Shown in pieces: positions 27,532-42,734 of a stretch of 64,000 nt of DNA. Where the stretch lies: IMG/VR virus record IMGVR_UViG_3300043450_000376. One strand, written 5' to 3'. Below the pieces are notes generated by a model that worked only from the letters and a program-made list of their open reading frames with translations, was not told the DNA's origin and searched no databases. The position numbers and the translations under genes are program-made. Source of the stretch: a virus. Lineage: Duplodnaviria; Caudoviricetes. Within the stretch, counting starts at the first letter, position 1. Every line of letters starts with the position of its first letter.

Positions 27532-27717
27532 ATGCAGATACAAGACTTTAAACCGGGAGATACTATCCAATGGTTACAGAAATTCGAAGAGCTAGAAGCC
27601 CCTATCACGGGTATTGTAGAAGTAGTAGCACCAGACGTGCTAACTGTGCGCGATAACCTTGGCCAGTTTTGGCAGGTAACAGCTGAAGATAGCCCGACTA
27701 GCTGGGATAATTGTTAA
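27532..27717 (+). CDS. hypothetical SH3-like small protein
   Basis: FKPGDTIQW..GIVEVV..LTV. Confidence 0.5.
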   Translation: MQIQDFKPGDTIQWLQKFEELEAPITGIVEVVAPDVLTVRDNLGQFWQVTAEDSPTSWDNC

Positions 27718-27758
27718 TAACTTTATTTTTGGGTGTCAAGTTAATTGGTTATATTTAC
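27711..27758 (+). promoter_or_regulatory. early promoter, copy 1 (TGTTAATAAC box 38 bp upstream of TATATTTAC)
   Basis: TTGTTAATAACTTT..GTGTCAAG..TATATTTAC. Confidence 0.75.
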
Positions 27759-27779
27759 TCTATAACTAAATGATATACG

Positions 27780-28082
27780 ATGATACACAAAGAATTTAAA
27801 TTAACCGTTACCGAACCTATTCGCGAAGAGTCAGGTCGTAGTGTAAAGCCTGTCCACTGGAGTATTGGGCAAGAGTTAACCCTTAGCGAGGCCGAGTTTA
27901 GCAGGCTAAGAGGTGGCGAAGTTGTCGAGAGATTTACCAACGAAGGGAGACTCAGATTTGATAAGCACCATTTTGCAAATGGGGTCAGGGTAATTGAAAT
28001 AGAAATTACCGAGAGCGAGGTAAAGCTTGGTAATACTAGAGGTCGTAAAGAGGTAAAGCTATTTTTCAACAGCAGCATATGA
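27780..28082 (+). CDS. hypothetical early protein
   Basis: directly follows promoter. Confidence 0.6.
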   Translation: MIHKEFKLTVTEPIREESGRSVKPVHWSIGQELTLSEAEFSRLRGGEVVERFTNEGRLRFDKHHFANGVRVIEIEITESEVKLGNTRGRKEVKLFFNSSI

Positions 28083-28187
28083 CCAGCCTCTTGTCAACTA
28101 TCGAGAAATTGGGTATATTAGCCCTAAAGATAATCGTGTTCTTTATAGTCGCGAAAGTATTATTTAAAATCTTAAACTGGATATAAT

Positions 28188-28415
28188 ATGTCAACTAAAA
28201 CAAAAGAAGCAATTTACAAACTATTTGTCGGTGTCTGTAGCTTTATGCTCGAAGCCTTTTTTCTTAAGGTAATATGGAATAGCATTGGCCCTGATCAAGG
28301 TCTACACGAAATTACCTGGCTCTCCGCAATGGGCTGGATGGTTATCGGCAAGACAGTAATGGGAACTGGTGCAATTAGGAGTGCTATCGCAGATGCCAAT
28401 AAGCCAAAGGGGTAG
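28188..28415 (+). CDS. small membrane protein
   Basis: two hydrophobic segments. Confidence 0.55.
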   Translation: MSTKTKEAIYKLFVGVCSFMLEAFFLKVIWNSIGPDQGLHEITWLSAMGWMVIGKTVMGTGAIRSAIADANKPKG

Positions 28416-28439
28416 GTATAATAATCTAAACAATATAAA

Positions 28440-28748
28440 ATGTCTATGTCTATAAAGAAAGCATTTGCAGCATTTACTGCAAAATTTAAAACCAAACCGA
28501 CTACAATGTCAAACACAGCAAACCAAACCAAGATAGGCATGACCTATCGCAAATTGCCTTACACAGCAAAATTAGCAGTTATTAACTCTCGTCTACGTCA
28601 AGGCGACTTAGTGAAAGTAGCTGCACGTACTGGATTCTCGCCTAACTACACAAGTGAAGTTATCGGTGGCTTGTACCAAAATGCAAAGATTGTAAACAAA
28701 GCTTTCGATATGACCCGCGGTCGTATCAAGAATTCTCAACTTGTCTAA
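28440..28748 (+). CDS. HTH DNA-binding protein
   Basis: LVKVAARTGFSPNYTSEVIGG helix-turn-helix-like; followed by terminator. Confidence 0.55.
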   Translation: MSMSIKKAFAAFTAKFKTKPTTMSNTANQTKIGMTYRKLPYTAKLAVINSRLRQGDLVKVAARTGFSPNYTSEVIGGLYQNAKIVNKAFDMTRGRIKNSQLV

Positions 28749-28770
28749 GTAGAGAATCTCTTAAGCCTTG

Positions 28771-28799
28771 AACCTGCCCCGTAAGGCAGGTTTTTTTTT
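28771..28799 (+). terminator. intrinsic terminator
   Basis: AACCTGCC-CCGTAA-GGCAGGTT + T run. Confidence 0.8.
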
Positions 28800-28800
28800 G

Positions 28801-28852
28801 AAAAATAAGTAATAAAAAGTTTTTTAGTGTCAACTTAATTGTTTATATTTAC
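28801..28852 (+). promoter_or_regulatory. early promoter (no upstream box)
   Basis: AAAAATAA..TTTTTTAGTGTCAACTTAATTGTTTATATTTAC. Confidence 0.7.
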
Positions 28853-28880
28853 ATATCATTAATAACCTAAACAATCTATT

Positions 28881-29090
28881 ATGAAAGCATCTATTAAATT
28901 TTTATTGGGTTCAGTCTTATTCTTATCAATTGCGTTCTTAACTGCGAGCGGTCATGTCGGAAAGGTTATCCCATTTGCAGGAACATTAAATGAAATGGGA
29001 TTCTTTATGTTAAGCGGAGCAATGGGAATACTATACGCGATTGCTGGATTCTCAAGAGAATCTAGTGATACTAAAGGGAGTATAAGATAA
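28881..29090 (+). CDS. small membrane protein
   Basis: two TM helices. Confidence 0.6.
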   Translation: MKASIKFLLGSVLFLSIAFLTASGHVGKVIPFAGTLNEMGFFMLSGAMGILYAIAGFSRESSDTKGSIR

Positions 29091-29091
29091 T

Positions 29092-29376
29092 ATGAAGACA
29101 AAGAAAGACAGGCTATGGTTAGTCGAGATCTGGAATTCAGATATCCTAACCGGTCGCAGCGTGCTAACCACACTGAAAGGGGTACACCAATTTACTAAGG
29201 TCCAACTGGATGCAAAGACCCTAAATATTGAATACAAAACCCTATGTCGAGAAGCGGCGAGCAGGCCAGTTCTCCTATGGGATAGGAGCAAGTGGAATAC
29301 TGAAGAAGAAGCATTATACAATCCCGAAGCCCAGCACTGCCAGGTCTCGATCGTACCCTTAATTAAAATGAAGTAA
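29092..29376 (+). CDS. hypothetical early protein
   Basis: 1-bp gap after upstream gene. Confidence 0.55.
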   Translation: MKTKKDRLWLVEIWNSDILTGRSVLTTLKGVHQFTKVQLDAKTLNIEYKTLCREAASRPVLLWDRSKWNTEEEALYNPEAQHCQVSIVPLIKMK

Positions 29377-29398
29377 TAATTATTAAACAACAAATATA

Positions 29399-29527
29399 AT
29401 GTCTAAATTCAAACTTATAGTAAAAGGTGCTGGAGTTTACAAGTGCGATAGCTTAGGTTCCCTAATAATCGAAGTATTAAAGCATAGGTTTTGGCATTTG
29501 ATACATGATGGTAAATGGATGGATTAA
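29399..29527 (+). CDS. small protein (42 aa, not in ORF track)
   Basis: MSKFKLIVKGAGVYKCDSLGSLIIEVLKHRFWHLIHDGKWMD. Confidence 0.5.
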   Translation: MSKFKLIVKGAGVYKCDSLGSLIIEVLKHRFWHLIHDGKWMD

Positions 29528-29577
29528 AAATAATCTATTAAAAATTTTTTACTGTCAAATAAAAGTATTATATTTAC
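29525..29577 (+). promoter_or_regulatory. early promoter
   Basis: TTTTTTACTGTCAAATAAAAGTATTATATTTAC. Confidence 0.75.
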
Positions 29578-29604
29578 AGTATAATCAATAAAAACAAAAA
29601 GGAT

Positions 29605-29751
29605 ATGGAAATTAAAACAACAAGAGAGTTAAAAGAAATTTTACAGTTTAACCTAATTACTTACTTAGATGGACATGATGACGAAGTACTTGATACCATT
29701 TGTAAAATAGTAATTGATGCAGTCAATAATTACGAAGTAAATAAAAAATAA
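29605..29751 (+). CDS. small protein (48 aa, not in ORF track)
   Basis: MEIKTTRELKEILQ..; follows promoter. Confidence 0.5.
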   Translation: MEIKTTRELKEILQFNLITYLDGHDDEVLDTICKIVIDAVNNYEVNKK

Positions 29752-29756
29752 AGGTT

Positions 29757-29933
29757 ATGGCAAAACTAACTAACGTAGAAAAAGAAGCACTAAGGGCTGG
29801 ATTAGAATTATGGGTCGAAGGAGTCCAAAAGGAGATTCAAGCAATCGAAGATCAAGGCAAGACCCCGCTATTTGCGAAAGCCTGGCCAGAAATGATTAAG
29901 AAAGAATTATTAACTAAACTTAAAGTTCAATAA
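29757..29933 (+). CDS. small protein (58 aa, not in ORF track)
   Basis: MAKLTNVEKEALRAGLELW..; fills gap in operon. Confidence 0.55.
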   Translation: MAKLTNVEKEALRAGLELWVEGVQKEIQAIEDQGKTPLFAKAWPEMIKKELLTKLKVQ

Positions 29934-29934
29934 T

Positions 29935-30174
29935 ATGACAAATAATAAACAACAATCGGCAGTGAAAAAGGTAAAAACAGGTATCATAAGATTCCTAAGC
30001 GGAATAGAGATGTTAATTCGTAGGAACATGATAACTGAGCCGGTTGGCGAAACCTTAGATCTTAGCTATGGTAATGGTCCTCGTGTTATGCGAACGGTTG
30101 AACCAAAGGAGCAGGCGGATTTTAATAGTTGGGCTAACCATGTCCATAGAGAAATCCTATCTAAATATAAGTAA
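29935..30174 (+). CDS. hypothetical protein
   Basis: FNSWANHV motif; coupled. Confidence 0.55.
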   Translation: MTNNKQQSAVKKVKTGIIRFLSGIEMLIRRNMITEPVGETLDLSYGNGPRVMRTVEPKEQADFNSWANHVHREILSKYK

Positions 30175-30290
30175 TACTATATTTAACATGACACATTGTC
30201 CTATTGACCTTGAGTTGGTAGGACACTTTGTCATAAAATAGTATTTGGCACCAAATTTGATCTATTAATATTAAAATAATTATATGTAAC

Positions 30291-30680
30291 ATGTTATTAC
30301 GTACTTTTTTCTCGGGAGAACCGAGCCTAACTCAAGAAATCCTAAAAGGATTACGCGACCCAATGTGGTCTACACTAATGTCAACTACACATCAGTCAGA
30401 CAACTATGATGTCAAAATTACAGACGAACTTGCACAGTATCGAATGATTATTGCTGGCCGTACTGAAGAAGAAATTGATATCGATATTGTTAATGATTAT
30501 CTAGTTGTTAAGGCTAAGAAAGCCAGTTGGATTCCTGCGCAGGAATTCCAGTTTGGTCTGCCTAGCCGTAGAGAATCTATTACAGCCAAGCTTATCGACG
30601 GAATCCTAACTGTTGATGTCGCTATTGCCAAAAGAGATTCTAAAGTTGGTAAGATAGTTATTAGTAGAGAGAAGAAATAA
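30291..30680 (+). CDS. small heat-shock protein (Hsp20/alpha-crystallin domain)
   Basis: IAGRTEEEIDIDI..YLVVK..F.LP....ITAKLIDGILTVDV. Confidence 0.8.
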   Translation: MLLRTFFSGEPSLTQEILKGLRDPMWSTLMSTTHQSDNYDVKITDELAQYRMIIAGRTEEEIDIDIVNDYLVVKAKKASWIPAQEFQFGLPSRRESITAKLIDGILTVDVAIAKRDSKVGKIVISREKK

Positions 30681-30822
30681 TAGTTTGATTGATTGGTTAA
30701 TAATGAGAGAGGGTCCTAGTAATAGGGCCTTTTTCTTTTAGGAAAGATTCCCTAAAATAAATTTTTTACTTTCAAGTATTTTAGTTATATTTACATATCA
30801 ATTAATAATTAAACCTTTTACT

Positions 30823-31011
30823 ATGAAACAATTTATCGGAACCCTTTTATTCTTTAGCTGGTTATTAGTCTTTATTCTTATGTGCGCAACTGATGGTCCA
30901 ATGGAAATTCCAGCCAAACCCTCGTCGCCAATCCTAGTTGCTATTTGTTTTTATGTTATAATCTTTGGCACCCCATTCCTTTCGATTTATTTAATGAAAG
31001 AAAAAAAGTGA
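30823..31011 (+). CDS. small membrane protein
   Basis: two TM helices; promoter TATATTTAC at 30786. Confidence 0.55.
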   Translation: MKQFIGTLLFFSWLLVFILMCATDGPMEIPAKPSSPILVAICFYVIIFGTPFLSIYLMKEKK

Positions 31012-31073
31012 TACAAAGTTTTTTAGTGTCAACTTAATTGGTTATATTTACTTATAACTTAAAACCTAATAAC

Positions 31074-31253
31074 ATGAAAAAGAAGCAAATTATTGAAAAG
31101 GCAGAGGCTTTCCTAAAGCTTTATGGATTTACCCAACAGGATTACATAGTTTCCCTACAGGGGCCAACGATAATTCTCTCAATTAGTGGCACTGAAAAAA
31201 TGCATGGAAACCTAAAAAACGAATTATTAAACGTAGGGATGCAGATCCTGTAA
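31074..31253 (+). CDS. hypothetical early protein
   Basis: likely start MKKKQ at 31074 after promoter 31043. Confidence 0.55.
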   Translation: MKKKQIIEKAEAFLKLYGFTQQDYIVSLQGPTIILSISGTEKMHGNLKNELLNVGMQIL

Positions 31254-31254
31254 A

Positions 31255-31323
31255 TTGTTAATAACTTTTAGGAAAATAAGTGCCTAAAAGTTTTTTACTG
31301 TCAAATAAAAGTATTATATTTAC
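31255..31323 (+). promoter_or_regulatory. early promoter with upstream box (59-bp spacing)
   Basis: TTGTTAATAACTTT..AAAATAA..TTTTTTACTGTCAAATAAAAGTATTATATTTAC. Confidence 0.8.
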
Positions 31324-31349
31324 TTATAACCAATTAAACCCTATAGATT

Positions 31350-31556
31350 ATGAAAAGATTATTTTGTACATCAGTTACAGACTTTGATGGAAATTTTGAA
31401 AGTCCAATTATCTTCCACATCCGTGCCGAAACAACGGACGATGCTGAGAAGTGTACGCGCGAACATTTAGTAGAGTCCGGCTATGATAAAGAAACAATTG
31501 ATGAAACCTTTGACATGGTTACATTTGAAGTAACTGAGATATTAGAACAAGACTAA
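31350..31556 (+). CDS. hypothetical early protein
   Basis: follows promoter. Confidence 0.6.
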   Translation: MKRLFCTSVTDFDGNFESPIIFHIRAETTDDAEKCTREHLVESGYDKETIDETFDMVTFEVTEILEQD

Positions 31557-31631
31557 TTATTAATAACTTTTGAAAAAAGATTTTTTACTGTCAATAATTT
31601 TAGTTATATTTACTTTATAAAATAAACAAAC

Positions 31632-32024
31632 ATGAAAATACTCTTAGAAAAAAATGAAGCGGAAGAAATATTCTTTAACGCAATGTGTAACGGCTTAGGC
31701 TACGTAACTAGCGGTTATGATTTAGAACTGGATTTCGACGACAAGGAATACCAAACCGCAGCTGCAAAACTAAAAGCAGGCGGTGCTAGCCCTTGTTTTG
31801 AAGATGTCTTAATGCAGATCTTACGTGATGGTAACAAGATTACCCTAGTAGATATTGGCTGTGAAGGCGAATACACTAGATCTGTAACCCTAGCGGATGT
31901 ACATGAACGCGTGGCCTTGACCCCAGCCAGCCATCTCCTAGATATGATAAACGAAAACGACGATGCATGCACTGCGGATGTTGTACTACAAAGCGTGTTC
32001 TTTGAAGATATAATCTTTGGCTAG
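31632..32024 (+). CDS. conserved hypothetical early protein
   Basis: follows promoter 31557-31613; ADVVLQSVFF..IIFG terminus. Confidence 0.65.
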   Translation: MKILLEKNEAEEIFFNAMCNGLGYVTSGYDLELDFDDKEYQTAAAKLKAGGASPCFEDVLMQILRDGNKITLVDIGCEGEYTRSVTLADVHERVALTPASHLLDMINENDDACTADVVLQSVFFEDIIFG

Positions 32025-32143
32025 ACCCCGGCTAGGGCCACTCCCTAGTAGACAATGTTAATAACTTTATTAAAAAACATTGTACTATGTCAAATAAAAG
32101 TATTATATTTAAATTATAAATCAATCAATCTAAAAAAATAACT

Positions 32144-32860
32144 ATGGCAAAATTTGAAGCATCAACCAACTTACCAGCATACTTTAAAAGTATTGACAAA
32201 CTGGCGAAGCCTTTAAGCAAGGCTGCGGAAAAAGAATTAGCTATCCGGATTCAGGCCGGCGACGAGGCTGCAATGCACTCCCTAGTAAATGCTAACCTTA
32301 AGTTCGCTGTCAGCTTAGCGAATAAGTTTATTGGACTAGGCTTGCCTGTCGACGATCTTATTATGGAAGCTAACTGCGGTCTTATCGAAGCTGCAAAGCG
32401 TTTTACTCCAGAAAAAGATGTTAAGTTTATTACCTATGCACAGTTCTGGATTCGTAAGAAGTTAAATACTGCACTAGGCGAGTATGGTCGTACTGTACGA
32501 TTACCTATGAATCAGGAATACGATATCTACAAGCGCAAAATGGCTGGCGAAGATATCAACTTAACTAATATTAGATTAGACAAGCCAATCGGCGAAGATG
32601 GTTCTAATACCTTAGGCGATCTTATTCTTCGTGCAGAATTCGTGGATCCATTTGAAGAACAAAGCGTTGAGCAACAAGTTGCCGCAGTGTTAAGCAAATT
32701 AAATGACCATGATCGCAAGGTAATCGAGACTTTCTATGGAATCGACAGAGGCGAAGCTCGCTCTGCTAAAGAAACTGCTGATGAATTAGGAATGGAAGTT
32801 TCTAAAGTAAATCAAACTCTTCGATTAGCTCGTCACAAATTACGTAAAACTTTTAACTAA
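32144..32860 (+). CDS. RNA polymerase sigma70-family factor (regions 1.2-4)
   Basis: LVNANLKFAVSLA, DDLIMEANCGLIEAAKRF, KFITYAQFWIR, VRLP, region 4 HTH SAKETADELG. Confidence 0.92.
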   Translation: MAKFEASTNLPAYFKSIDKLAKPLSKAAEKELAIRIQAGDEAAMHSLVNANLKFAVSLANKFIGLGLPVDDLIMEANCGLIEAAKRFTPEKDVKFITYAQFWIRKKLNTALGEYGRTVRLPMNQEYDIYKRKMAGEDINLTNIRLDKPIGEDGSNTLGDLILRAEFVDPFEEQSVEQQVAAVLSKLNDHDRKVIETFYGIDRGEARSAKETADELGMEVSKVNQTLRLARHKLRKTFN

Positions 32861-32876
32861 TTAAATCCTAAAGAAA

Positions 32877-33278
32877 ATGTCAGATCAAATTAAACAATGG
32901 ATAGCTAAAGGCTATGCGCTAGAAGTAACAGAAGTAATTATAGAGAATGATAAGGCAGGGGATCTAGATCAAGAAACTCTTTTACTTGATATAACTAATG
33001 CTGCACTGGAAAATATGAAGGATGATATAGTTCCTTTTGTAAATCCTAACTTGACTGAAGAGCAGGTCAGTGCAGTGATAGACTCTGCAGCGAAAGCCCA
33101 AATAAGAAATACTATTTCTGAAATGGTAGACGCTGGATTAATTGATGCAGCGCTTAGCGAATCAGGCGAGGTAATGTACAAGCAGTCTGCAAAAGGCGCA
33201 GCCTACGAAGACATGCTTCAAGATGGATTCATAAAGCCAGAAGACTTTACTAAACAATTAAAAGGAGGAAAACTATGA
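32877..33278 (+). CDS. hypothetical acidic protein
   Basis: coupled to sigma gene. Confidence 0.6.
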   Translation: MSDQIKQWIAKGYALEVTEVIIENDKAGDLDQETLLLDITNAALENMKDDIVPFVNPNLTEEQVSAVIDSAAKAQIRNTISEMVDAGLIDAALSESGEVMYKQSAKGAAYEDMLQDGFIKPEDFTKQLKGGKL

Positions 33279-33586
33279 TAAGTTATGTCGAAGAACAGGG
33301 TAGTATTGCAAGCGTGGTGCACGACAACGGGACCCGAACCCAGTTTGTATTAGGTAACTATGAACTTATAGGTTGGGATTCAGAAGAGGTCTGCTGCATG
33401 TCTCAAACAGGCGAGGTTAATTTCTTTACTGCAACCGGCGAGAATAGAGGTATGTATAGATTAGGATTACCCAATCAAGAACCTCTCTCTTTTAATAATG
33501 GTATATTACTTTACGAAGACCTTGGCCTAAGAGAAAAGTTTGCATATAATCGTCGCACAGGCGAAACCCGGCAGTCGAATCGATAG
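33275..33586 (+). CDS. hypothetical beta-rich protein
   Basis: ATGA overlap. Confidence 0.55.
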   Translation: MISYVEEQGSIASVVHDNGTRTQFVLGNYELIGWDSEEVCCMSQTGEVNFFTATGENRGMYRLGLPNQEPLSFNNGILLYEDLGLREKFAYNRRTGETRQSNR

Positions 33587-33623
33587 TACAATAATAGATA
33601 ATACTATAATATAACCAGGAATC

Positions 33624-33788
33624 ATGTCAGTAGGAACCTATTACTATTACTCAAAACTAGATAAATCAACCGAGGCTGTTGATAAAGTTTTTACAACTGG
33701 CAGATTGGCCGCCGCTAAACACTTCGCAAACCGTAAGAATCTGCCGCTAAAGGCATTCTTACAAATATGGGCAGTAAGCAAAAAATAA
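33624..33788 (+). CDS. small protein (54 aa, not in ORF track)
   Basis: MSVGTYYYYSKLDK..FANRKNLPL..FL. Confidence 0.5.
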   Translation: MSVGTYYYYSKLDKSTEAVDKVFTTGRLAAAKHFANRKNLPLKAFLQIWAVSKK

Positions 33789-33797
33789 TCTCGATGT

Positions 33798-33941
33798 ATG
33801 GATCCAAAAGAAAAAGAAGGGGCAGACTCAGCTGCGCAACAAGAGCTAGACCAATGGTTAAAGGATCTTGATAAAGAACTTGATAATCTTGAAGAAGAAC
33901 AAAAAGAGAGATGGGGACCAGATGGAAAACCTGAAGAATAA
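33798..33941 (+). CDS. small acidic protein (47 aa, not in ORF track)
   Basis: MDPKEKEGADSAAQQELDQWLKDLD.. Confidence 0.45.
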   Translation: MDPKEKEGADSAAQQELDQWLKDLDKELDNLEEEQKERWGPDGKPEE

Positions 33942-33943
33942 AA

Positions 33944-34011
33944 TGTTAATAACTTTTTTAAAAATAAATGAACCTGGATTTTTTTAATTCAGGTTTTTTT
34001 ATTATATTTAC
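33944..34011 (+). promoter_or_regulatory. early promoter, hairpin subclass; 65 bp identical to 39579-39643
   Basis: TGTTAATAAC..GAACCTGGATT-T5-AATTCAGGTTT..TATATTTAC. Confidence 0.8.
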
Positions 34012-34037
34012 ATATAACAAACTAACAAAGATATAAT

Positions 34038-34319
34038 ATGAACTACTCACAAATCCTTTCTCAAATCAACACCCTTTCTACTGCTGACCTTTCAAAGTTA
34101 AATGCAGATCTTATTGACATTATTAAATTACGTCGCAGACAAGAAGCGCGTATGGTAAAACGTTCTTTAATAATTGGGATGTCGGTTAGAGTTAACCATC
34201 CTAAAGCTGCGGGTAAAACGTTCGAAGTTGTTAAAATCAACCGCACCAAAATACATTTAAAAGAAGCTGGTAAATTAGGCATTATAATCGCTCCACTTAG
34301 TTTGACTGAGGCAATTTAA
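34038..34319 (+). CDS. hypothetical basic early protein
   Basis: follows promoter. Confidence 0.65.
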   Translation: MNYSQILSQINTLSTADLSKLNADLIDIIKLRRRQEARMVKRSLIIGMSVRVNHPKAAGKTFEVVKINRTKIHLKEAGKLGIIIAPLSLTEAI

Positions 34320-34335
34320 TAATAAACAAATCAAT

Positions 34336-34647
34336 ATGAAAATGACAAGAGAAGAACAGATTAACATCGTAAGGGCAGAGGTAGAAATATACCTTGATAA
34401 TAATGCTCAATGGACAGAACTCGTCGACCTATCGGAAAGTGAAAGAGTTCATATTATTGATATAGGAACCTCGATTCTCTGCACTAAGTGGAAGGTAGGA
34501 TATGAAGGTGGAAGCTTTGTACAGAGCTTTGTTGCTAACGATCTTATGGGTGCGATTGGTCGCGCAGATTATACAACATACAAAGGATTAAAATTCTTTG
34601 CAAACTTAGTCTATAATGTAGGAATACCAACTAAACTATTAAAATAA
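34336..34647 (+). CDS. hypothetical protein
   Basis: GGSFVQSFVANDLMGAIGRAD. Confidence 0.65.
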   Translation: MKMTREEQINIVRAEVEIYLDNNAQWTELVDLSESERVHIIDIGTSILCTKWKVGYEGGSFVQSFVANDLMGAIGRADYTTYKGLKFFANLVYNVGIPTKLLK

Positions 34648-34653
34648 AAAGAT

Positions 34654-34893
34654 ATGAAGATACACGAAAAGGCGAGAGCCTATGACGAATTAATGAAGGA
34701 TATAGATTCCTTTATTACTCAATTAGAGGAACACTCTAACTCCATTAAAGAAATCGATAAGGACGAAACTGGTAAAGACGGGATGGGATATTATCCTATG
34801 AAAGTAGGTCGTCTCGTTGGAAGCAACTTTGGTCTAGAGCTAAAGATTCAAAAAATGGTGGGTATATTAGAATGGTATAAGAAATTAAAGTAA
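34654..34893 (+). CDS. hypothetical protein
   Basis: coupled. Confidence 0.55.
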   Translation: MKIHEKARAYDELMKDIDSFITQLEEHSNSIKEIDKDETGKDGMGYYPMKVGRLVGSNFGLELKIQKMVGILEWYKKLK

Positions 34894-34914
34894 TCAATTA
34901 AATCAAATATAACT

Positions 34915-35217: not shown

Positions 35218-35341
35218 TATAGTTTCTATTATATCAAGAAATATAATCCAACAGGAGTGTCCCAGCGACCTCCTGTTCTGGGTTAGTATTAAAACCTTTT
35301 GGCTTATTCTAATAAAAGATATCAAAATAATACTTATATTC

Positions 35342-35701
35342 ATGTTTAAAGCGATCGCAAACTGGTTTAAAGGATTGTTAGGTAAAGCAGAACAAGAAGT
35401 AGTTAAGGACAAGCAAGTAGTAGATTCATTCGAGAAATGGTCAACTGTTGTTAATGAGATTCCTAAAGCAAAAGTTGAAGAGGTTAAAAAACCTTATCCA
35501 ATCGTAGCCGAAGAAACTGTAAAGCCTGCCCCTACTAAAGCTGAGAAGAACTCTCGTAAGAAAGATTCAACGAAGCCTGCTAAAGAGACAACTAAGACAA
35601 CTGCAAAGACGTCTAAGCCCTCTACAAAACCTGCGCAGAAGGCTGGCAAGCCAGCTGCAAAGACTACACCTAAGTCCAATACAACTAACACAACTAAGTA
35701 A
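35342..35701 (+). CDS. protein with histone-H1-like K/T/P/A-rich tail
   Basis: AKETTKTTAKTSKPSTKPAQKAGKPAAKTTPK. Confidence 0.6.
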   Translation: MFKAIANWFKGLLGKAEQEVVKDKQVVDSFEKWSTVVNEIPKAKVEEVKKPYPIVAEETVKPAPTKAEKNSRKKDSTKPAKETTKTTAKTSKPSTKPAQKAGKPAAKTTPKSNTTNTTK

Positions 35702-35928
35702 TGGTAAAGACACTAGTACTACACAGAGAAGACACAAAGGTAATATATTGCCTAGGTGGTGGCGAAGAAATCCAATTGAATAATGCGGTAATCCGTATTA
35801 CATTTCCGGAAACTACTCGTCAAATTAAGACCATTTCGTTTGGCACTCAAGAAGAAGCAGACTCTGCTTTTAAGGAGATTCAAGACTGGCTTGCTAGCAC
35901 GCTAGCCCAGTTGGTTATGGAACTATAA
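35701..35928 (+). CDS. hypothetical protein
   Basis: 1-bp overlap. Confidence 0.55.
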   Translation: MVKTLVLHREDTKVIYCLGGGEEIQLNNAVIRITFPETTRQIKTISFGTQEEADSAFKEIQDWLASTLAQLVMEL

Positions 35929-35931
35929 GAA

Positions 35932-36000
35932 TTGTTAATAACTTTTCTTAAAATAAGTCCTCAAAGATTTTTTTCTTTGAGGATTTTTTATTATATTAGC
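35932..36000 (+). promoter_or_regulatory. early promoter, hairpin subclass
   Basis: TCCTCAAAGA-T6-TCTTTGAGGA (35958-35983) before TATATTAGC. Confidence 0.8.
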
Positions 36001-36026
36001 TCTATAACCAATTAACTAAAGAAGAT

Positions 36027-36182
36027 ATGTGGACACTAGATTGCAGCTACTACAAGAAAGAATTCTCAACTCTACAAGAACTTATCGATGATGTCATGTC
36101 CAGCGGCATGGATCCAAATTACGAGATCCTGCGAGATGGCAAGCCTACGGGCGAAGAGCTATGGGATTTTATAGTCCCATAA
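36027..36182 (+). CDS. small protein (51 aa, not in ORF track)
   Basis: MWTLDCSYYKKEFSTLQELIDDVMSSGMDPNYEI..; between two promoters. Confidence 0.6.
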   Translation: MWTLDCSYYKKEFSTLQELIDDVMSSGMDPNYEILRDGKPTGEELWDFIVP

Positions 36183-36270
36183 TTTTTTGAAAATACGTGC
36201 TCAAATATTTTTTACTGTCAATTATTTTTATTATATTAGCTTTATATTAATCAACTAAACCCTTAAATGT

Positions 36271-36489
36271 ATGTATGTAATTATTAATCTTAATCACGAT
36301 GGTGATTCCTATTTCTTAACTGAAAACCTAGACAAAGCCCAAGCGGAGTTTAATGAGTGTTGCAAAGAAGACGAATATAACTTCAAAGTAATCCTATGTC
36401 GTCCAACTCTTGAAGGAACATTTGGATTTGGAAGTCGTGGCGAACTTTATGGTGCGGAGATCATTGAAGAATGGGAGAGAGAAGATTAG
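36271..36489 (+). CDS. hypothetical early protein
   Basis: follows promoter 36183-36240. Confidence 0.55.
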   Translation: MYVIINLNHDGDSYFLTENLDKAQAEFNECCKEDEYNFKVILCRPTLEGTFGFGSRGELYGAEIIEEWERED

Positions 36490-36500
36490 TCTCTCCCAAA

Positions 36501-36568
36501 TTGTTAATAACTTTATGAAAATAATTAATAAAAAGTTTTTTACTGTCAAATAAAAGTATTATATTTAC
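36501..36568 (+). promoter_or_regulatory. early promoter with upstream box (58-bp spacing)
   Basis: TTGTTAATAACTTT..TTTTTTACTGTCAAATAAAAGTATTATATTTAC. Confidence 0.8.
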
Positions 36569-36593
36569 TCTATAACCAATTAAAAAATAACAT

Positions 36594-37010
36594 ATGTCAA
36601 ATCAAATCGTGTTCGCCCGTTTCGGAATGGGACCAGACCCAAGAGTTTCAGAAGTATTAATGTCTGAAATTATTTTAAACAAAACTGACGCAAAAATTCT
36701 TCCACTTCCTGGAATTATTATCTCAGTTTTTAAAAGTGAGTTGACACCAACTCAAATTCGGGATCGTTTTAAAAACGATAGTGAGTTAAATGAAGTTCCA
36801 TTTATGGTTACGACCTTAGAAGATTTCGATATTAATCTTCCAGAAAAAATTCGTAAATCAGTTTTTGGTTTAGGTGAAACCTCATCACCAACAAGTTCCA
36901 CATCACACTTAACAATGGATGACTTATTGGAATTGATTTCAGTTAAAGGTTTAAGTGGACTAACCGTCGACGAAAAATCCAGACTCGATGTATTACGAAG
37001 TGAGTTTTAG
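36594..37010 (+). CDS. protein with DUF6576-like C-terminal helical domain
   Basis: MDDLLELISVKGLSGLTVDEKSRL. Confidence 0.55.
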   Translation: MSNQIVFARFGMGPDPRVSEVLMSEIILNKTDAKILPLPGIIISVFKSELTPTQIRDRFKNDSELNEVPFMVTTLEDFDINLPEKIRKSVFGLGETSSPTSSTSHLTMDDLLELISVKGLSGLTVDEKSRLDVLRSEF

Positions 37011-37033
37011 TTTAGTAGTTAATTGATAGAATT

Positions 37034-37060
37034 GGGAGAGCGAAAGTTCTCCCTTTTTTT
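37034..37060 (+). terminator. intrinsic terminator
   Basis: GGGAGA-GCGAAAGT-TCTCCC + T7. Confidence 0.8.
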
Positions 37061-37127
37061 GTTAATAACTTTTTGAAAAATAATTGACCCCAGATTTTTT
37101 AGTTTGGGGTTTTTTGTTTATATTTAC
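37059..37127 (+). promoter_or_regulatory. early promoter, hairpin subclass; no ORF downstream
   Basis: ACCCCAGATT-T4-AGTTTGGGGT (37087-37110) before TATATTTAC. Confidence 0.75.
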
Positions 37128-37222
37128 TATGTCAATCAATCAATAAGACGGGACGGTTCTGAACAAGGAAGCGGGAGGTATACTCCGACCTACCTCTATA
37201 TTTGGCTAGGATTACAGGAAAA

Positions 37223-37290
37223 TTGTTAATAACTTTTTGAAAATAAGTGTATAAAAGTTTTTTATTGTCAAACTAATTGCTTATATTTAC
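37223..37290 (+). promoter_or_regulatory. early promoter with upstream box
   Basis: TTGTTAATAACTTT..TTTTTTATTGTCAAAC..TATATTTAC. Confidence 0.75.
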
Positions 37291-37313
37291 TTAACCAATT
37301 AACTTAACTACAT

Positions 37314-37826
37314 ATGACAAATCAAATCAGAGCAGCTCGGCCAAACCTTAATCCAAAGTCACTACCAACCTTGGCGCTTGCAGGTAGAGCCAACATCACC
37401 TTCCGCAATAATGAACAACTTACCCACATGAACGTGCGTATCAAGCAGTTACGTGACAAGGAGGATCGCAAAAAGATGCTGCCTATTTACTACGTCAATA
37501 TCTCTCTATTGGCGGACGGGCGTAGCGGTCATCAGTTTGCAGGTACCCTATTTGCCGAGCCCTTAACCTATGTATTGGGCAAAGGAGTTACACCAAGCTC
37601 GCGACTGGCACAGGCTCTAGGCTGGGTGGTAGCTGCTATTAAGGACCCTACAATTTTGGGAACCCGAGTAGGTCTATTTCATAATGGGACCTGCTGCAAA
37701 TGTGGCTTGCCATTAACCCATCCAGAAAGTATCAATACTGCAATGGGACCTGTTTGTTTGGAGAGAGTAAAAGCCGCAATGACATCAGTAGACTTTTTCG
37801 ACACCTTTACCCCAATCGGGGTATAG
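37314..37826 (+). CDS. DUF6011-like Zn-finger protein
   Basis: CCKCGLPLTHPESINTAMGPVC. Confidence 0.7.
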   Translation: MTNQIRAARPNLNPKSLPTLALAGRANITFRNNEQLTHMNVRIKQLRDKEDRKKMLPIYYVNISLLADGRSGHQFAGTLFAEPLTYVLGKGVTPSSRLAQALGWVVAAIKDPTILGTRVGLFHNGTCCKCGLPLTHPESINTAMGPVCLERVKAAMTSVDFFDTFTPIGV

Positions 37827-37843
37827 GTTATACTTAGTTACAG

Positions 37844-37910
37844 TGTTAATAACTTTTTGAAAATAAGTAACAAAAAGTTTTTTACTGTCAAATAAAAGTA
37901 TTATATTTAC
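37844..37910 (+). promoter_or_regulatory. early promoter with upstream box
   Basis: TGTTAATAACTTT..TTTTTTACTGTCAAATAAAAGTATTATATTTAC. Confidence 0.8.
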
Positions 37911-37935
37911 TTATAACTAATTAAAACAAATAAAG

Positions 37936-38187
37936 ATGATTTTTCAAATAAAAAACGAAAGCAACGAGGTTGGACTGTTAAAAGTCGTTGAATGTATAGG
38001 AAATACCTGGTCTCCCGAGTCATATGGTGATATTATCAGTAAGTCATTAAAACTCTTTTCTGAAATAGGAGAGGCCGATGGATGGGATGTTGATGATCTT
38101 GATGATTTTGTGGAATTCAACAATCTGAGAAACGTATTAATTTTGGAGCATTTTTTTATAGTGGACGAAATACAATTTTATCAATAA
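37936..38187 (+). CDS. hypothetical acidic protein
   Basis: follows promoter. Confidence 0.55.
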   Translation: MIFQIKNESNEVGLLKVVECIGNTWSPESYGDIISKSLKLFSEIGEADGWDVDDLDDFVEFNNLRNVLILEHFFIVDEIQFYQ

Positions 38188-38229
38188 AATACTTATATTT
38201 ACTTTATAATCAATTAAACTATATACAAT

Positions 38230-38643
38230 ATGCAAGAAAATCAAGTAACTTTAGTGGACCAAATGTACGCATGGGGTCAAGGTGAATCAGCTCTCTACCC
38301 GCACTGTCATGACTTCTATGACTGGTTCTGTAGCGATGCTTCGCTCGATCGTAGAGCTAAATCCCTTCAGAGCAAGGTAATCAAGTTGGTAAAGTACTTT
38401 TGCAAAAATGGAAATCCAATCGATTGCAGCAAGGTGTATGTATTCTTTAAGAATAACTGTCCAATGGGCGGACCGCTTTATGATTCATTCTCTATCTGTG
38501 ATCGCGAATCAGGTGATGTTCTCTTTTGGGTAACTCCTAAATCCGGTCATAGCGGTAAAGCTGAAATCTTTTCACGCGCAAAGGGATTTAGCGATCCTTT
38601 GGCCGAAGCTGATAATTTCTCTCAACTCTTAAAATCTATCTAA
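38230..38643 (+). CDS. conserved phage hypothetical protein
   Basis: FYDWFC.D.SL, YVFFKNNCP..GPLYDSFSICD. Confidence 0.7.
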   Translation: MQENQVTLVDQMYAWGQGESALYPHCHDFYDWFCSDASLDRRAKSLQSKVIKLVKYFCKNGNPIDCSKVYVFFKNNCPMGGPLYDSFSICDRESGDVLFWVTPKSGHSGKAEIFSRAKGFSDPLAEADNFSQLLKSI

Positions 38644-38645
38644 CT

Positions 38646-38831
38646 ATGGCAACACAAGAAGCAATCGATGAAGCAATCGCGATATGGGGTCAAGACGCAG
38701 TCTATCAAGCAATGGAGGTCGTAGCAATGTCAGACCCCGATGGGGCCTACACAATGTTCGAAGATCTAGGAATCTTTGATCAAGCCGAGGTAGTAGAATT
38801 CCTCTATTTCGATGGGGCAGGTAATGAATAA
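38646..38831 (+). CDS. small acidic protein
   Basis: coupled. Confidence 0.55.
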   Translation: MATQEAIDEAIAIWGQDAVYQAMEVVAMSDPDGAYTMFEDLGIFDQAEVVEFLYFDGAGNE

Positions 38832-38881
38832 AGAGACTCCGTAGTAAGTATAATAATATTAATCAATTAAATCAAAGAACA

Positions 38882-39262
38882 ATGGGATTAGACATGTATG
38901 CACAGGTTCGCAGTAACAAGCCAAAAACTGCAGTAGACTTTAAAACTGAAGAAGGTGTTGAAGATCAGGAGTTACACTACTGGCGTAAGCACCCTAACCT
39001 GCACGGTTGGATGGAAAACCTATACTACCTTAAGGGCGGTACGGCCGAGAGTTTCAACTGCGTAAACGTGCTAATTGAGTCAGATGACTTAGACCAGTTA
39101 GAGCGTCATATTAAAGAGCGTCACCTACCTCAAACCGCTGGATTCTTTTTTGGTAATAGCCAATCCGATGAGCGTGAGATAGAAGACGATCTACAGTTTA
39201 TTAAAGAGGCGAGGAGAACGATCGCGGCTGGAGAGTATGTCTACTATACTTCATGGTGGTAG
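38882..39262 (+). CDS. conserved phage hypothetical protein
   Basis: MGLDMY..YWRKHPNLHGWM..GFFFG..Y.SWW. Confidence 0.7.
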   Translation: MGLDMYAQVRSNKPKTAVDFKTEEGVEDQELHYWRKHPNLHGWMENLYYLKGGTAESFNCVNVLIESDDLDQLERHIKERHLPQTAGFFFGNSQSDEREIEDDLQFIKEARRTIAAGEYVYYTSWW

Positions 39263-39322
39263 GCCCGCCTGCCCACTCCCTAGTAGATTAGGTATATTAA
39301 TAACTAGATAAATAACCCATAC

Positions 39323-39577
39323 ATGAACGAAATAAAAAGAGACCTTAAGACTTCACAAATGCTAGCCGAGCTGGTAAGTCTTCGTCATACAGATTTCGAT
39401 GCATTTATGAATCTGTTATATGATGCACTACAGCGCGAACTTAGCGGTGCTATCTTTGATGAGACTCCACTTACTGAAAAACAGGAAGCACTCAACTCAA
39501 TGATTCAATACTTTCAAGATAAGGAAGAATACGAGAAGTGTGCAGTGCTTAGGGACATGGTCCTAACGATCGAATAA
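39323..39577 (+). CDS. small protein with UVR-like motif
   Basis: QDKEEYEKCAVLRD. Confidence 0.6.
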   Translation: MNEIKRDLKTSQMLAELVSLRHTDFDAFMNLLYDALQRELSGAIFDETPLTEKQEALNSMIQYFQDKEEYEKCAVLRDMVLTIE

Positions 39578-39646
39578 TTGTTAATAACTTTTTTAAAAAT
39601 AAATGAACCTGGATTTTTTTAATTCAGGTTTTTTTATTATATTAGC
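39578..39646 (+). promoter_or_regulatory. early promoter, hairpin subclass (duplicate of 33944)
   Basis: 65-bp identity with 33944-34008; TATATTAGC. Confidence 0.8.
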
Positions 39647-39757
39647 TTATGTAGTTTAGACCCCAGCCGGACTCCGTAGTAAATAGATAACTAAAGAGCA
39701 GTGCCAAAAACTACTCTACATTAGTATAATAATAGTAATCAATTAAAAATCAAACAT

Positions 39758-40876
39758 ATGACAGGAAAAAAAGAAGTCCAAGTCCGCAAGTATTTCTCAC
39801 AGGAATTCGGCGGCGAAGTTCCAACCGGCAAGGTATTGGATCTATTCCAAAACTTTCAGACCCATCCTCTAGGCGAGGGTATCTCTTATTCGCTCTTTAA
39901 CGGAGTTATAAAGAAGTTACGCGGTCCACAAACCCCAGCTGATGTAACACAAACCAGCCGAGTAGTTGCAACACCAGCTGCAGCAACCAAGGATTTTGAA
40001 TTAGAGATTGTCGAGATTGGCAATATGGAATTTCCTGATTTTAAATGCTTTAAGACTGGTACCCTATTAGACAAGTTATTTTCAGACCACGAAGATGGCG
40101 GAGGTATCTATGGTGGTACTGCTAATATTGTAATCGGCGAGTCGGGCGTGGGTAAATCAACTGTAATGCTAGATGTTCTTGCTAAGATTAAGCGTAATCA
40201 ACCTGAAGCAAAGATCCTCTATATCTCTAGCGAAATGACTCGTAATGATCTCTTCTTCTACTACAGTAAAATGCCGATTATTGCCGAGGTTCCTACCTTA
40301 CTCTTAATGGATTATATCCAAACGGGTTTTGTGAAAGCAATTGAAAAGGCCTTGACTGGAGAACACGATGTAATCCTTATTGACTCGCACCAAGATATTA
40401 TTGTAAAGCTAAAGGATGTCTTAGGCTGGAAGTCAACCTATGCAGAGGCATGGTTAACTAATCTTGTAATCAAAGCTGCAGACGGTATGGGTAAATCAAT
40501 CTTCTGTATTCAACACATGACAAAGGGCGGTACCTATGTAGGAAGTACTTATCTTAAACATGCGACTACCTCAATGATGGAGATTAAGTTTGGCCCAGGC
40601 AATCGCAGATACTTAGAGTTCACAAAGAACCGTAGAGGCGGCAGCTTAGTAAATAAACCCCTCTTCTATTCAATGGCAGATGGTCAAGTAGTTTACGATC
40701 AAGCAAGTTGGGATCTTCAAATCCGAGCTGAGGATGTTGCACATACCGAAGAGGCAAGGCGAGAAGAATTAGAGAGCGAGTTTGATGCTCTATTTCTAAG
40801 CGCAACCTTAGCAACCTCATCAGTAGAGGAGCCAACTGAATTTACTGAAGAAAATAAAGTTGAGGTAGAGCAGTAA
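39758..40876 (+). CDS. RadA/Sms-like RecA-fold ATPase (no Zn finger or Lon domain)
   Basis: Walker A GESGVGKST, LYISSEM, Walker B ILIDS, HMTKGG.YVGS..LKH. Confidence 0.75.
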   Translation: MTGKKEVQVRKYFSQEFGGEVPTGKVLDLFQNFQTHPLGEGISYSLFNGVIKKLRGPQTPADVTQTSRVVATPAAATKDFELEIVEIGNMEFPDFKCFKTGTLLDKLFSDHEDGGGIYGGTANIVIGESGVGKSTVMLDVLAKIKRNQPEAKILYISSEMTRNDLFFYYSKMPIIAEVPTLLLMDYIQTGFVKAIEKALTGEHDVILIDSHQDIIVKLKDVLGWKSTYAEAWLTNLVIKAADGMGKSIFCIQHMTKGGTYVGSTYLKHATTSMMEIKFGPGNRRYLEFTKNRRGGSLVNKPLFYSMADGQVVYDQASWDLQIRAEDVAHTEEARREELESEFDALFLSATLATSSVEEPTEFTEENKVEVEQ

Positions 40877-40930
40877 CTCTGCCTACTTCTTTAGTATAAT
40901 AGTATTAACCAAAAAAACCAAATAAAATAT

Positions 40931-42052
40931 ATGTTATCACAAGCACAATTTAACGAGGCAAAATTAGCCGCAATCAACACTGAACCGCTGACTAAACCCG
41001 TAATGCTAAGTGAGATCAAATTGAGTGACAATTCACAGAAGGATGGCTTCATCCACTTGAATGACTCAAGGGTCCCAGCTAGCGGCGCGTTTTTTAAACA
41101 GCTGGCTTCCCTACTTAACATCAACCAAACCTTAAACTCTAAGTTTGAGAAGAATGGTGATGCTGCAATCGGTAATAAACTTATCGGCGCAGTCAAGCAC
41201 TACACAGAGAACCGAGGTGGAGATGTTCCCCTAATGATGGTTGCAAATCGTGATCATCGCGAAATTACAGGTATCGTAAAGGCAGACAAGTTTGCACGTA
41301 TCTCTAATGAGACTCTATTTAAAACTGCAGAAGGAATCCTTAACGAGGTACCGGACATGCATATTGAGTCTATTGACAATGGTAACGGCACCAGTCGTAT
41401 TAACTTGATCCATACCAGTGAGGTAGGTTTTGAGCGTATCGGCCCAGACGAAGTATTCCGTTTCGGAGTTTCATTAGTGAACAGCCCTACACAAACTCAA
41501 GTAGATGATTTCTTCTACAGATTAGTATGTGCTAATGGCGCAGTTGCTAAAGACATGACAGCAGCCTTCCAATTAAAACAGGCAAATGCTACAGGTATTG
41601 CCGAGTTATTCCAATCCCTTAAAGCTTATGGTAAAACAGGTTTTGTACCGCGTGCCTTTGCTGAAAGATTAGAACGTGCAACCGGTACACGCGCAAGTTT
41701 GCAAGAGGTACAAAGAGCAGTGGACTCCGTAGTAGGTAACCTTAAACATGAGGATCCGGAAATGAGACGTCGTCTACAGGAAAGCGTAGTGGACAACCAC
41801 TTCCCAATGTATAAGTCTACCATGGCCAGAGTATTTAATGCAGGCCATAACCCAGATTTCTTAACAGACAAGCAAAAGAGTTTCGTTAAGACAGGTATGA
41901 GTGTATGGGATCTTGTCAACGAGTTGACTTGGTTAGGTAGCCATAACACTGTTGAAGAGTATGAAAACCGTGCACGCTTTAAAGCTGCAGGTGGAAGCCT
42001 CTTCGCTAAGAGTAACTATGATTTAGAAGCAGCACAGTTTGCGACTATATAG
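40931..42052 (+). CDS. DUF932/DUF945-like protein
   Basis: GVSLVNS....FYRLVCANG; WDLVNELTWLGSH. Confidence 0.6.
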   Translation: MLSQAQFNEAKLAAINTEPLTKPVMLSEIKLSDNSQKDGFIHLNDSRVPASGAFFKQLASLLNINQTLNSKFEKNGDAAIGNKLIGAVKHYTENRGGDVPLMMVANRDHREITGIVKADKFARISNETLFKTAEGILNEVPDMHIESIDNGNGTSRINLIHTSEVGFERIGPDEVFRFGVSLVNSPTQTQVDDFFYRLVCANGAVAKDMTAAFQLKQANATGIAELFQSLKAYGKTGFVPRAFAERLERATGTRASLQEVQRAVDSVVGNLKHEDPEMRRRLQESVVDNHFPMYKSTMARVFNAGHNPDFLTDKQKSFVKTGMSVWDLVNELTWLGSHNTVEEYENRARFKAAGGSLFAKSNYDLEAAQFATI

Positions 42053-42076
42053 TTTGATGATTGATTGATTAGGATT

Positions 42077-42100
42077 AGGCCCTCTACAAGAGGGCCTTTT
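42077..42100 (+). terminator. intrinsic terminator ending the early island
   Basis: AGGCCCTCT-ACA-AGAGGGCCT + T run. Confidence 0.8.
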
Positions 42101-42231
42101 TCTTTTAGGATAAAACCGTACTCCGTAGTAGAGTACAAGATCTTGGAGTTCTTATCCAGCTATTTAAATCTAGACCGTTTCAATAGCAAACCCAAAGGGA
42201 TCTGCGCAAGCTGATCCCTTCTTTTTTGGAG

Positions 42232-42360
42232 TCAGCGACCTTGTCCTTGATACTTCTTAGGTTTCTGTTCCTTAGGACCGAAGCTCTTCTTTGCCTTGCC
42301 AACCTTCTTTACAGTAGGACGGAAGGTAGAGCCAGCAGTTGCGCCTTTCTTTGTTGCCAT
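42232..42360 (-). CDS. small basic late protein (42 aa, not in ORF track)
   Basis: MATKKGATAGSTFRPTVKKVGKAKKSFGPKEQKPKKYQGQGR; TATAAATA at 42385-42392; hairpin 42195-42220 downstream. Confidence 0.7.
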   Translation of the reverse strand: MATKKGATAGSTFRPTVKKVGKAKKSFGPKEQKPKKYQGQGR

Positions 42361-42524
42361 TTCTAGACCGGGTTATTTTGCAATTATTTATAAGTTATAG
42401 GTATAATAGAAATAGGCCCAAAAGCCCGGGCCCATGCCGACGGGGCATAGGTATTTATGGTGACCCCGCTCCGTGGGGATCCCCGGCCCCTGGAGAAATG
42501 CTCCTCTATTAGGGCCGCCAGAAA

Positions 42525-42582
42525 TTGTTAATAACTTTATGCAAAAAGATTGTCAGGAGTCATGGAAAAGTGGTATATTAGC
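42525..42582 (+). promoter_or_regulatory. early-type promoter (48-bp spacing) with no convincing downstream ORF
   Basis: TTGTTAATAACTTT..TTGTCA..TATATTAGC. Confidence 0.6.
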
Positions 42583-42734
42583 TATAGGTAACCGGTTAAG
42601 AACTCCGACCCAGGGCTGGACCCAGCATAAGGATCCAGAAGAGTATACTCCGACCTGCCTCTCTCTAGGGGGCAGGACTAATGTACTACTCTATACAACG
42701 CATTAGTTTTGAACCAGTTAGACAACCCTAAGTG

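Follow-up and report, generated by a model that had tools for sequence, protein, structure and literature searches.

The stretch of DNA analysed here, 64,000 nucleotides of a virus (Duplodnaviria; Caudoviricetes; IMG/VR record IMGVR_UViG_3300043450_000376) and referred to below as the window, carries in its predicted early region a promoter repeat that stands in 18 copies before a series of genes. Two thirds of these promoters (12/18) have an upstream ten-letter box, TGTTAATAAC, whose distance to the promoter core falls into three classes one helical turn apart. Our findings make it likely, from sequence comparison, that this box is the site of a host DNA-binding factor that the phage has copied.

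The core, T[TA]ATATT[TA][AG]C, occurs 16 times on the plus strand between 27749 and 39637 and never on the minus strand, and core variants at 32103 and 42573 raise the promoter total to 18. Exact copies of the box number 11, all on the plus strand (starts 27712, 31256, 32056, 33944, 35933, 36502, 37060, 37224, 37844, 39579 and 42526), with no further exact copy on either strand of the 64-kb window; the chance expectation is 0.3 on average and 2 at most in Markov-1 simulations. A one-mismatch form, TATTAATAAC, lies in the same promoter setting at 31558 and completes the twelve boxed promoters. Counted from the box start to TTATATT, the distance is 37 nucleotides at 27712, 46-47 at 31558, 32056 and 42526, and 57-58 at the other eight; the initial annotation, which had described an early promoter of about 18 copies with a phased upstream box, counted to TATATT and hence gave 38, 47-48 and 58-59. 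Our recount of cores, boxes and spacing classes agrees with that description. The early region is the sole location of the box, here and in a 254-kb relative. The promoter units are listed below, distances being in nucleotides and the hairpin class denoting units whose spacer forms a terminator-like stem-loop.

27712..27770, plus strand: unit with box at 27712-27721 and core TTATATTTAC at 27749, distance 37, the box abutting the -33 T-run; gene 27780-28082.
28808..28864, plus strand: unit without box, with a GC hairpin and a T-run ahead of the core at 28843; gene 28881-29090.
29533..29589, plus strand: unit without box, exact 30-mer at 29545-29574, core at 29568; gene 29605-29751.
30750..30806, plus strand: unit without box, core at 30785; gene 30823-31011; strain-variant breakpoint at 30814.
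31007..31063, plus strand: unit without box, core at 31042; gene 31074-31253.
31256..31335, plus strand: unit with box at 31256-31265 and core at 31314, distance 58; gene 31350-31556.
31558..31625, plus strand: unit with the variant box TATTAATAAC at 31558 and core at 31604, distance 46; gene 31632-32024.
32056..32124, plus strand: unit with box at 32056 and core TTATATTTAA at 32103, distance 47; phage sigma-factor gene 32144-32860.
33944..34023, plus strand: unit of the hairpin class with box at 33944, terminator-like hairpin at 33963-34003 with a T-rich loop at -33, and core at 34002, distance 58; gene 34038-34319.
35933..36012, plus strand: unit of the hairpin class with box at 35933, hairpin at 35955-35986 and core TTATATTAGC at 35991, distance 58; gene 36027-36182.
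36196..36252, plus strand: unit without box, core at 36231; gene 36271-36489.
36502..36580, plus strand: unit with box at 36502 and core at 36559, distance 57; gene 36594-37010.
37060..37139, plus strand: unit of the hairpin class with box at 37060, hairpin at 37078-37119 and core at 37118, distance 58; no open reading frame (ORF) of at least 30 amino acids behind it.
37224..37302, plus strand: unit with box at 37224 and core at 37281, distance 57; gene 37314-37826 (DUF6011).
37844..37922, plus strand: unit with box at 37844 and core at 37901, distance 57; gene 37936-38187.
38158..38214, plus strand: unit without box, core at 38193; gene 38230-38643.
39579..39658, plus strand: unit of the hairpin class with box at 39579, hairpin at 39598-39638 and core TTATATTAGC at 39637, distance 58; a 121-nucleotide leader, then the P-loop ATPase gene 39758-40876.
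42526..42594, plus strand: unit with box at 42526 and core variant GTATATTAGC at 42573, distance 47; no ORF close behind it.

The regions behind three of these promoters (37118-37230, 42573-42700 and 39637-39757), the first two being followed by no ORF of at least 30 amino acids and the third by the long leader, could be the source of small RNAs made early or of structured leader sequences.

The cores read TATATTTA or TATATTAG and match 7/8 consensus positions of TAnnTTTG, the -7 element of Bacteroidota promoters; the perfect form, TATATTTG, is present in relatives. A T-run (TTTTTTAC) lies at a constant 23 nucleotides 5' of TTATATT, even where it forms the loop of a hairpin. It is correctly placed for the -33 TTG/TTTG, which is expected about 19 nucleotides 5' of the -7 element, with the G mostly missing. 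Because the core corresponds to the Bacteroidota -7 element, the cassette promoters are, as judged from their sequence, probably of the Bacteroidota housekeeping type and meant for the host RNA polymerase. In this regard, the early-promoter core of the initial annotation is real and present in 18 copies, but it is a host -7 element with a -33 T-run and not a special phage promoter.

The four hairpin spacers have folding energies of -16 to -19 kcal/mol (z-scores of -3.9 to -4.9), their loop being the -33 T-run, and some further copies have a hairpin just upstream. The box-to-core distance is unchanged between these four and the unstructured spacers; in the non-hairpin copies, an AT-rich hairpin between box and T-run did no better than shuffled sequence. 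An A-rich leader, TATAAC(C)AATTAA, follows the core, and the full 30-mer is present in 4 exact copies against 0 expected, with no match of the window's exact 30-mer in IMG/VR. Two other readings of the upstream sequence were dropped. One took the box for an additional -7 element (seen as TAACTTTG where copies stand in tandem), but the G is mostly missing and the host data described below fit better; the other was an IHF-like reading of TAACTTTTTGAAA, whose conservation pattern is opposite to that of an IHF site.

Strain variants of the window (compared with L003 and L002) have whole gene cassettes swapped or deleted, with breakpoints at 29387/29523, 30814/31655 and 37314/38183, inside or beside the repeats. 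Metatranscriptome contigs from four freshwater sets also end or join at the repeats, and these ends could be assembly artefacts. In one strain variant a chorismate-mutase-like gene replaces a 42-amino-acid ORF. An early promoter and stem-loop before small ORFs, with strain differences ending there, are the features of the promoter-early stem-loop (PeSL) cassettes of T4-type phages (Arbiol 2010, PMC2839356; Comeau 2014, PMC4122927), and the repeats belong to this type. PeSLs are likewise short terminator and early-promoter modules before small, mostly unknown genes of a variable region, and strain differences likewise end in the repeats. The repeats differ from PeSLs in having a Bacteroidota -33/-7 promoter instead of sigma-70 TTGACA/TATAAT, in placing the -33 T-run in the loop of the hairpin (hairpin class), and in carrying, in two thirds of the copies, an invariant phased upstream box, of which the available part of PMC4122927 makes no mention.

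The box and its spacings extend to many other phages. When IMG/VR was scanned for the box with TTATATT 25-55 nucleotides behind it, at least 118 stretches were returned, and box and spacings were found in more than 70 IMG/VR contigs. Among the matches listed, to which the following counts refer, the distance of box-plus-TT matches peaks at 37, 46-47 and 56-58 nucleotides, while chance boxes give a flat distribution. After tandem upstream copies were left out, all 113 box-promoter pairs stand at 36-37, 45-48 or 55-59 nucleotides, with class means of 36.9, 46.9 and 57.3 nucleotides and a best period of 10.25-10.5 bp. At loci of the typical design, 119/221 cores have the exact box and 7 a copy with a single mismatch; nothing similar stands before the remaining cores. 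The phage spacers differ widely in sequence, and the distance to the -7 element nevertheless falls into three fixed classes; it is therefore the spacing, and not the spacer, that is kept.

Relatives found through the phage sigma factor retain the exact box at only 61-63% sigma identity, often doubled with a 12-bp period. In two of them (L007, 13904-14260; L009, 9250-9617) tandem boxes of this period stand before a small WYL_2 (PF10902) gene, which is absent from the window. The cultured Chryseobacterium phage MA9V-1 (213 kb; L360, 141.7-146.2 kb) has the cassette in common with the window at about 81% identity, including the A-tract, the T-run and the TTATATTTGT core; no box lies at its cassette, and its genome-wide box count equals the control level. 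The closest huge phages, LR756500 and LR745206, contain the box only at chance level, and the phage collection contained no near match to the window.

A parallel arrangement was found in bacterial genomes. When one genome of each species was scanned, the full phage design turned up only in Flavobacteriia and Bacteroidota bins, on contigs that are phage-like or misbinned, and a search for close box pairs pointed to the spacer before the HU gene (hup). In 39/151 genomes of one family the exact box lies 90-120 nucleotides before the hup start (control, 0). There an inverted box stands 58 nucleotides from the -7 element TAAATTTG, which is the main phage class, with a second box 20 bp further 5'; the promoter itself reads TTG-N19-TAAATTTG. 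In the phage orientation and at main-class spacing, the pattern TGTTAATAACN{46,49}TANNTTTG is present in 98/151 genomes (about 118 matches vs about 11 in the control), and the shorter spacings in this orientation peak sharply at 38 and rise more broadly at 46-49. The inverted-orientation search returned hup (58) and rpiB (47). Overall, the host distances from box to TAnnTTTG are 38, 46-49 and 57-59 nucleotides, and the genes behind the box comprise gyrB, dnaX, lexA (a LexA-like repressor), pyrG, trxB, purH, dnaN, dinB and rpiB, together with a box pair 20 bp apart at dnaB in one genome. The host gyrB promoter has an inverted repeat around its T-rich -33 region, as in the phage hairpin class. 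The gyrB form is present in a complete genome titled Flavobacteriaceae bacterium, which suggests that the host family is Flavobacteriaceae.

Other host loci were noted in these searches. Relaxed box pairs in five complete genomes fall mainly at hup, at dnaB and in one rplS-icd spacer. In the latter, three boxes (TTATNAACA, in mixed orientation; L290, 1028-1071; L292, 1040-1072) form a conserved cluster just after rplS, in a non-coding spacer of 680-830 bp before icd. The cluster is 10-20 kb away from dnaA and might serve for DnaA binding or be a candidate origin. Before a YtxH-like gene (L306, L309, L321, L322 and L325) an inverted box stands 31 nucleotides from the -7 element, over the -33 region, a geometry unlike the others that possibly reflects repression. 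In the literature searched we found no description of a host replication-gene regulon with the box and no paper dealing with Flavobacteria origins or DnaA boxes, and the box string gave only unrelated matches.

The presence of the box before core host genes indicates that it is read by a host protein, and that the phage promoters would therefore copy that module. The permitted positions lie whole turns apart in phages and hosts alike, and the face-of-helix factor put forward in the initial annotation is borne out by three classes one turn apart in many phage contigs with unrelated spacers and in host promoters. As to the nature of this factor, the identical box at the same distances to TAnnTTTG before gyrB, dnaX, hup, trxB and purH favours the host protein that the annotation had considered, and makes the injected phage protein, which it had offered as the other option, unnecessary. 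The phage early genes thus appear to be plugged into a host control circuit.

A mechanism can be outlined on these grounds. The repeat would act as a mobile early-gene cassette composed of an optional terminator hairpin, the -33 T-run, TAnnTTTG and the conserved A-rich leader, at which the host RNA polymerase with its housekeeping sigma factor would start on entry of the DNA. The transcription start is predicted 5-10 nucleotides downstream of TATATTTN; with the start placed from the -7 element, the box centre would lie about 45, 55 or 65 bp 5' of it, on one face of the helix. A host DNA-binding protein would dock at two thirds of the promoters and contact the polymerase from that face, so that the early phage genes would be read like host genes for replication, the nucleoid and nucleotide supply. 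Activation, tying early expression to replicating hosts, would be the favoured effect, because the sites lie 5' of the core promoter, keep the helical phase and copy promoters of growing-cell genes. Repression, or a state-dependent switch between both, is possible, and arithmetic makes it plausible that the factor would be titrated as the phage DNA multiplies.

Which host protein binds is a separate question, and DnaA is our prediction, held with somewhat better than even confidence. Read on its other strand, the box is TTATTAACA, which differs from the DnaA box TTATNCACA by an A in place of the C at position 6; against the DnaA 9-mer TT(A/T)TNCACA it matches 8/9 positions and is a variant. 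Canonical DnaA boxes are at chance level across the window, with none in the early region. In 27 gyrB upstream regions, gathered through the protein and hence blind to the box, the element is TGTT(A/G)ATAAC, and its sole variable base is the N of the DnaA box TTATNCACA. A canonical DnaA box, TTTT(C/T)CACA (TTTTCCACA), stands there 5-6 bp from the box, head to head. At hup, the distal box takes the forms TTATTAACA, TTATCAACA and TTGTTAACA, with changes at positions 3 and 5, which DnaA tolerates. A free position 5, a tolerated position 3 and canonical boxes or replication genes nearby would all be expected of a DnaA box. The host DnaA contains ...ASLASIG...KRDHATVLHA, which presumably places alanine at the positions of P423 and T435 of E. 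coli DnaA (P423A and T435A). Both residues are among the listed base-contact residues of DnaA (PMC5043019). In T5-like phages, DnaA-box pairs 3 bp apart, TTATTAACA included, have been reported (10.1101/866236), and this arrangement gives the 12-bp period seen in the tandem boxes of the relatives. The suggestion in the initial annotation that the factor is DnaA is thus supported by the variation at the N position in gyrB, the adjacent TTTTCCACA and a regulon of replication and nucleotide genes; the box itself departs from the DnaA consensus at one position.

Several observations weigh against this interpretation, and some of them favour another host regulator, presumably dimeric, which would read GTTA-N-TAAC and control a replication and nucleotide regulon, with DnaA acting only on the canonical gyrB box and the phage still copying a host site. 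The core GTTAATAAC (GTTA-A-TAAC) is a perfect 4+1+4 palindrome, which suits a dimeric protein too, and both orientations occur at the same distance (hup and rpiB inverted, gyrB and dnaX direct). The tenth box base, outside the DnaA 9-mer, is conserved, as is the T that follows; the phage copies are nearly invariant, being all-or-none, which is unusual among DnaA boxes. The region upstream of host dnaA carries only TTGTTCACA, of the CACA type and not the AACA form. Phased upstream positions are not the classic mode of action of DnaA. The initial annotation had suggested looking for the box at the host origin and the dnaA promoter, and the outcome went against DnaA: the region upstream of dnaA has TTGTTCACA, no dense origin-like box cluster was found, and direct pairs within 40 bp occur in only 3/401 Bacteroidota genomes. 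Two further points bear on the role of the box itself: one relative (L006, 74% identity) has the same promoters with no box at all, so that the box must be dispensable, and the phage copies share ancestry, so that the spacing counts are not fully independent. The other host regulator nevertheless seems unlikely to us, though well worth keeping in mind. The variable base in gyrB is position 5 of the 10-mer, where a change breaks the palindrome, yet this is the position that DnaA leaves free; distal hup boxes lack the outer G and read TTTATTAACA; and the gene set resembles the regulon expected of DnaA. To our knowledge, there is no candidate for such a regulator.

Two explanations that dispense with a host factor can be weighed against the same data. 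The box could be an operator at which a protein encoded or injected by the phage turns the early promoters off or on, in keeping with the many phages that silence early promoters with proteins of their own, with the restriction of the box to the early region and with the tandem boxes before one conserved small gene in two relatives. That gene is missing here, and a Pfam search of 20 early ORFs revealed no DNA-binding domain or helix-turn-helix. Above all, the same box and distances stand before core host genes in most genomes of one family; a phage protein therefore cannot explain the box, and we attach hardly any weight to this operator. Alternatively, the box might bind no protein, either hitchhiking on a duplicating and recombining cassette or acting in RNA, at the 3' end of the upstream transcript. 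The cassettes do mediate strain swaps and deletions, and the box often comes right after the preceding stop codon and, in four copies, before a terminator hairpin. Unrelated spacers that keep three fixed distances to the -7 element tell against this, as do the terminator lying 5' of the box in some relatives, its lack in the 37 class, and host promoters without an upstream gene end that keep both box and distances; we regard this explanation, too, as extremely improbable.

Returning to DnaA, the most complete form of the model would be a hitherto undescribed Flavobacteriaceae circuit in which DnaA, reading TTATNAACA from set faces of the helix, drives promoters of replication, nucleoid and nucleotide genes, and which a wide phage clade, including very large phages, has copied to its early-gene cassettes, so that early transcription would sense host replication and the boxes would soak up DnaA during multiplication of the phage genome. 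As a whole this chain is tentative, and we hold it to be possible rather than probable.

The geometry of the boxes can be compared with that of class I/II activators, such as CRP at -41.5, -61.5 and -71.5, and of Fis at rRNA promoters. In both cases upstream sites occur only at helical-turn steps, a likeness in geometry alone; the protein and the polymerase are others here, and the centres would lie near -45, -55 and -65. DnaA acts at lambda pR/ori-lambda. In common with the T5-like phages (10.1101/866236), the phages studied here have several host-initiator boxes, including TTATTAACA, and the 12-bp tandem period, and in both the binding of DnaA is a proposal. The T5 boxes form one non-coding cluster in the first-step-transfer DNA and were proposed to stop injection (10.1101/866236); in contrast, each box in the window belongs to a single promoter, from which it keeps a phased distance, and the boxes extend across 15 kb of early genes. 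The Spo0A boxes of the phi29 family (PMC2731898) resemble the present case as host-regulator sites at early promoters that couple transcription to the state of the host. Spo0A, however, represses and reports sporulation, whereas here replication-gene promoters would be copied and the position of the sites suggests activation. PeSL cassettes and host regulators at phage early promoters (phi29/Spo0A; lambda and T5/DnaA) are thus already known kinds; what is new is the combination of a PeSL cassette with a host-regulator site, the strict helical phasing and the match to a host replication-gene regulon.

The remaining gene content gives the phage context. Genes for a two-subunit type II topoisomerase, an endolysin-like amidase, a serine recombinase and a sigma factor are found in the window, which contains no tRNAs. 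As the topoisomerase has its best matches (50-61% identity) in uncultured phages of 460-640 kb, and identical proteins come from freshwater samples and from a metagenome contig of 201 kb, the window is, by its gene content, a piece of a large uncultured freshwater phage, whose hosts would be bacteria of the Flavobacteria type. Two products under box promoters are the sigma factor (32144-32860; 238 amino acids, regions 2 and 4), which has hundreds of metagenome homologues, and the P-loop ATPase (39758-40876), with weak helicase- or recombinase-like PHROG matches. An 84-amino-acid, UVR-domain-like protein with a C-terminal EE(Y/F)EKC...L(K/R)D motif is encoded at 39323-39577 (also at 537-755); its gene is the early gene most widely common to box-bearing contigs and follows a DnaJ-like gene in other phages. 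This protein was considered as the box binder and is not likely to be so. At the end of the early region lies the serine recombinase (42735-43367, minus strand), which has an HTH_17/MerR-like domain and keeps its position in relatives L007 and L009.

Together, these findings suggest a concrete rule for the timing of early genes in uncultured phages of an abundant aquatic group, namely mimicry of host replication-gene promoters, and reveal a host regulon in which one exact ten-letter box stands in helical phase before gyrB, dnaX, dnaN, hup, trxB, purH and other genes. Box and spacing also offer a simple marker by which the early regions of such phage contigs could be recognised and their hosts assigned. 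Should DnaA be the binder, a major phylum would have a shifted box preference, together with two altered DNA-contact residues, and the phages would have a route to sense or drain the initiator of their hosts.

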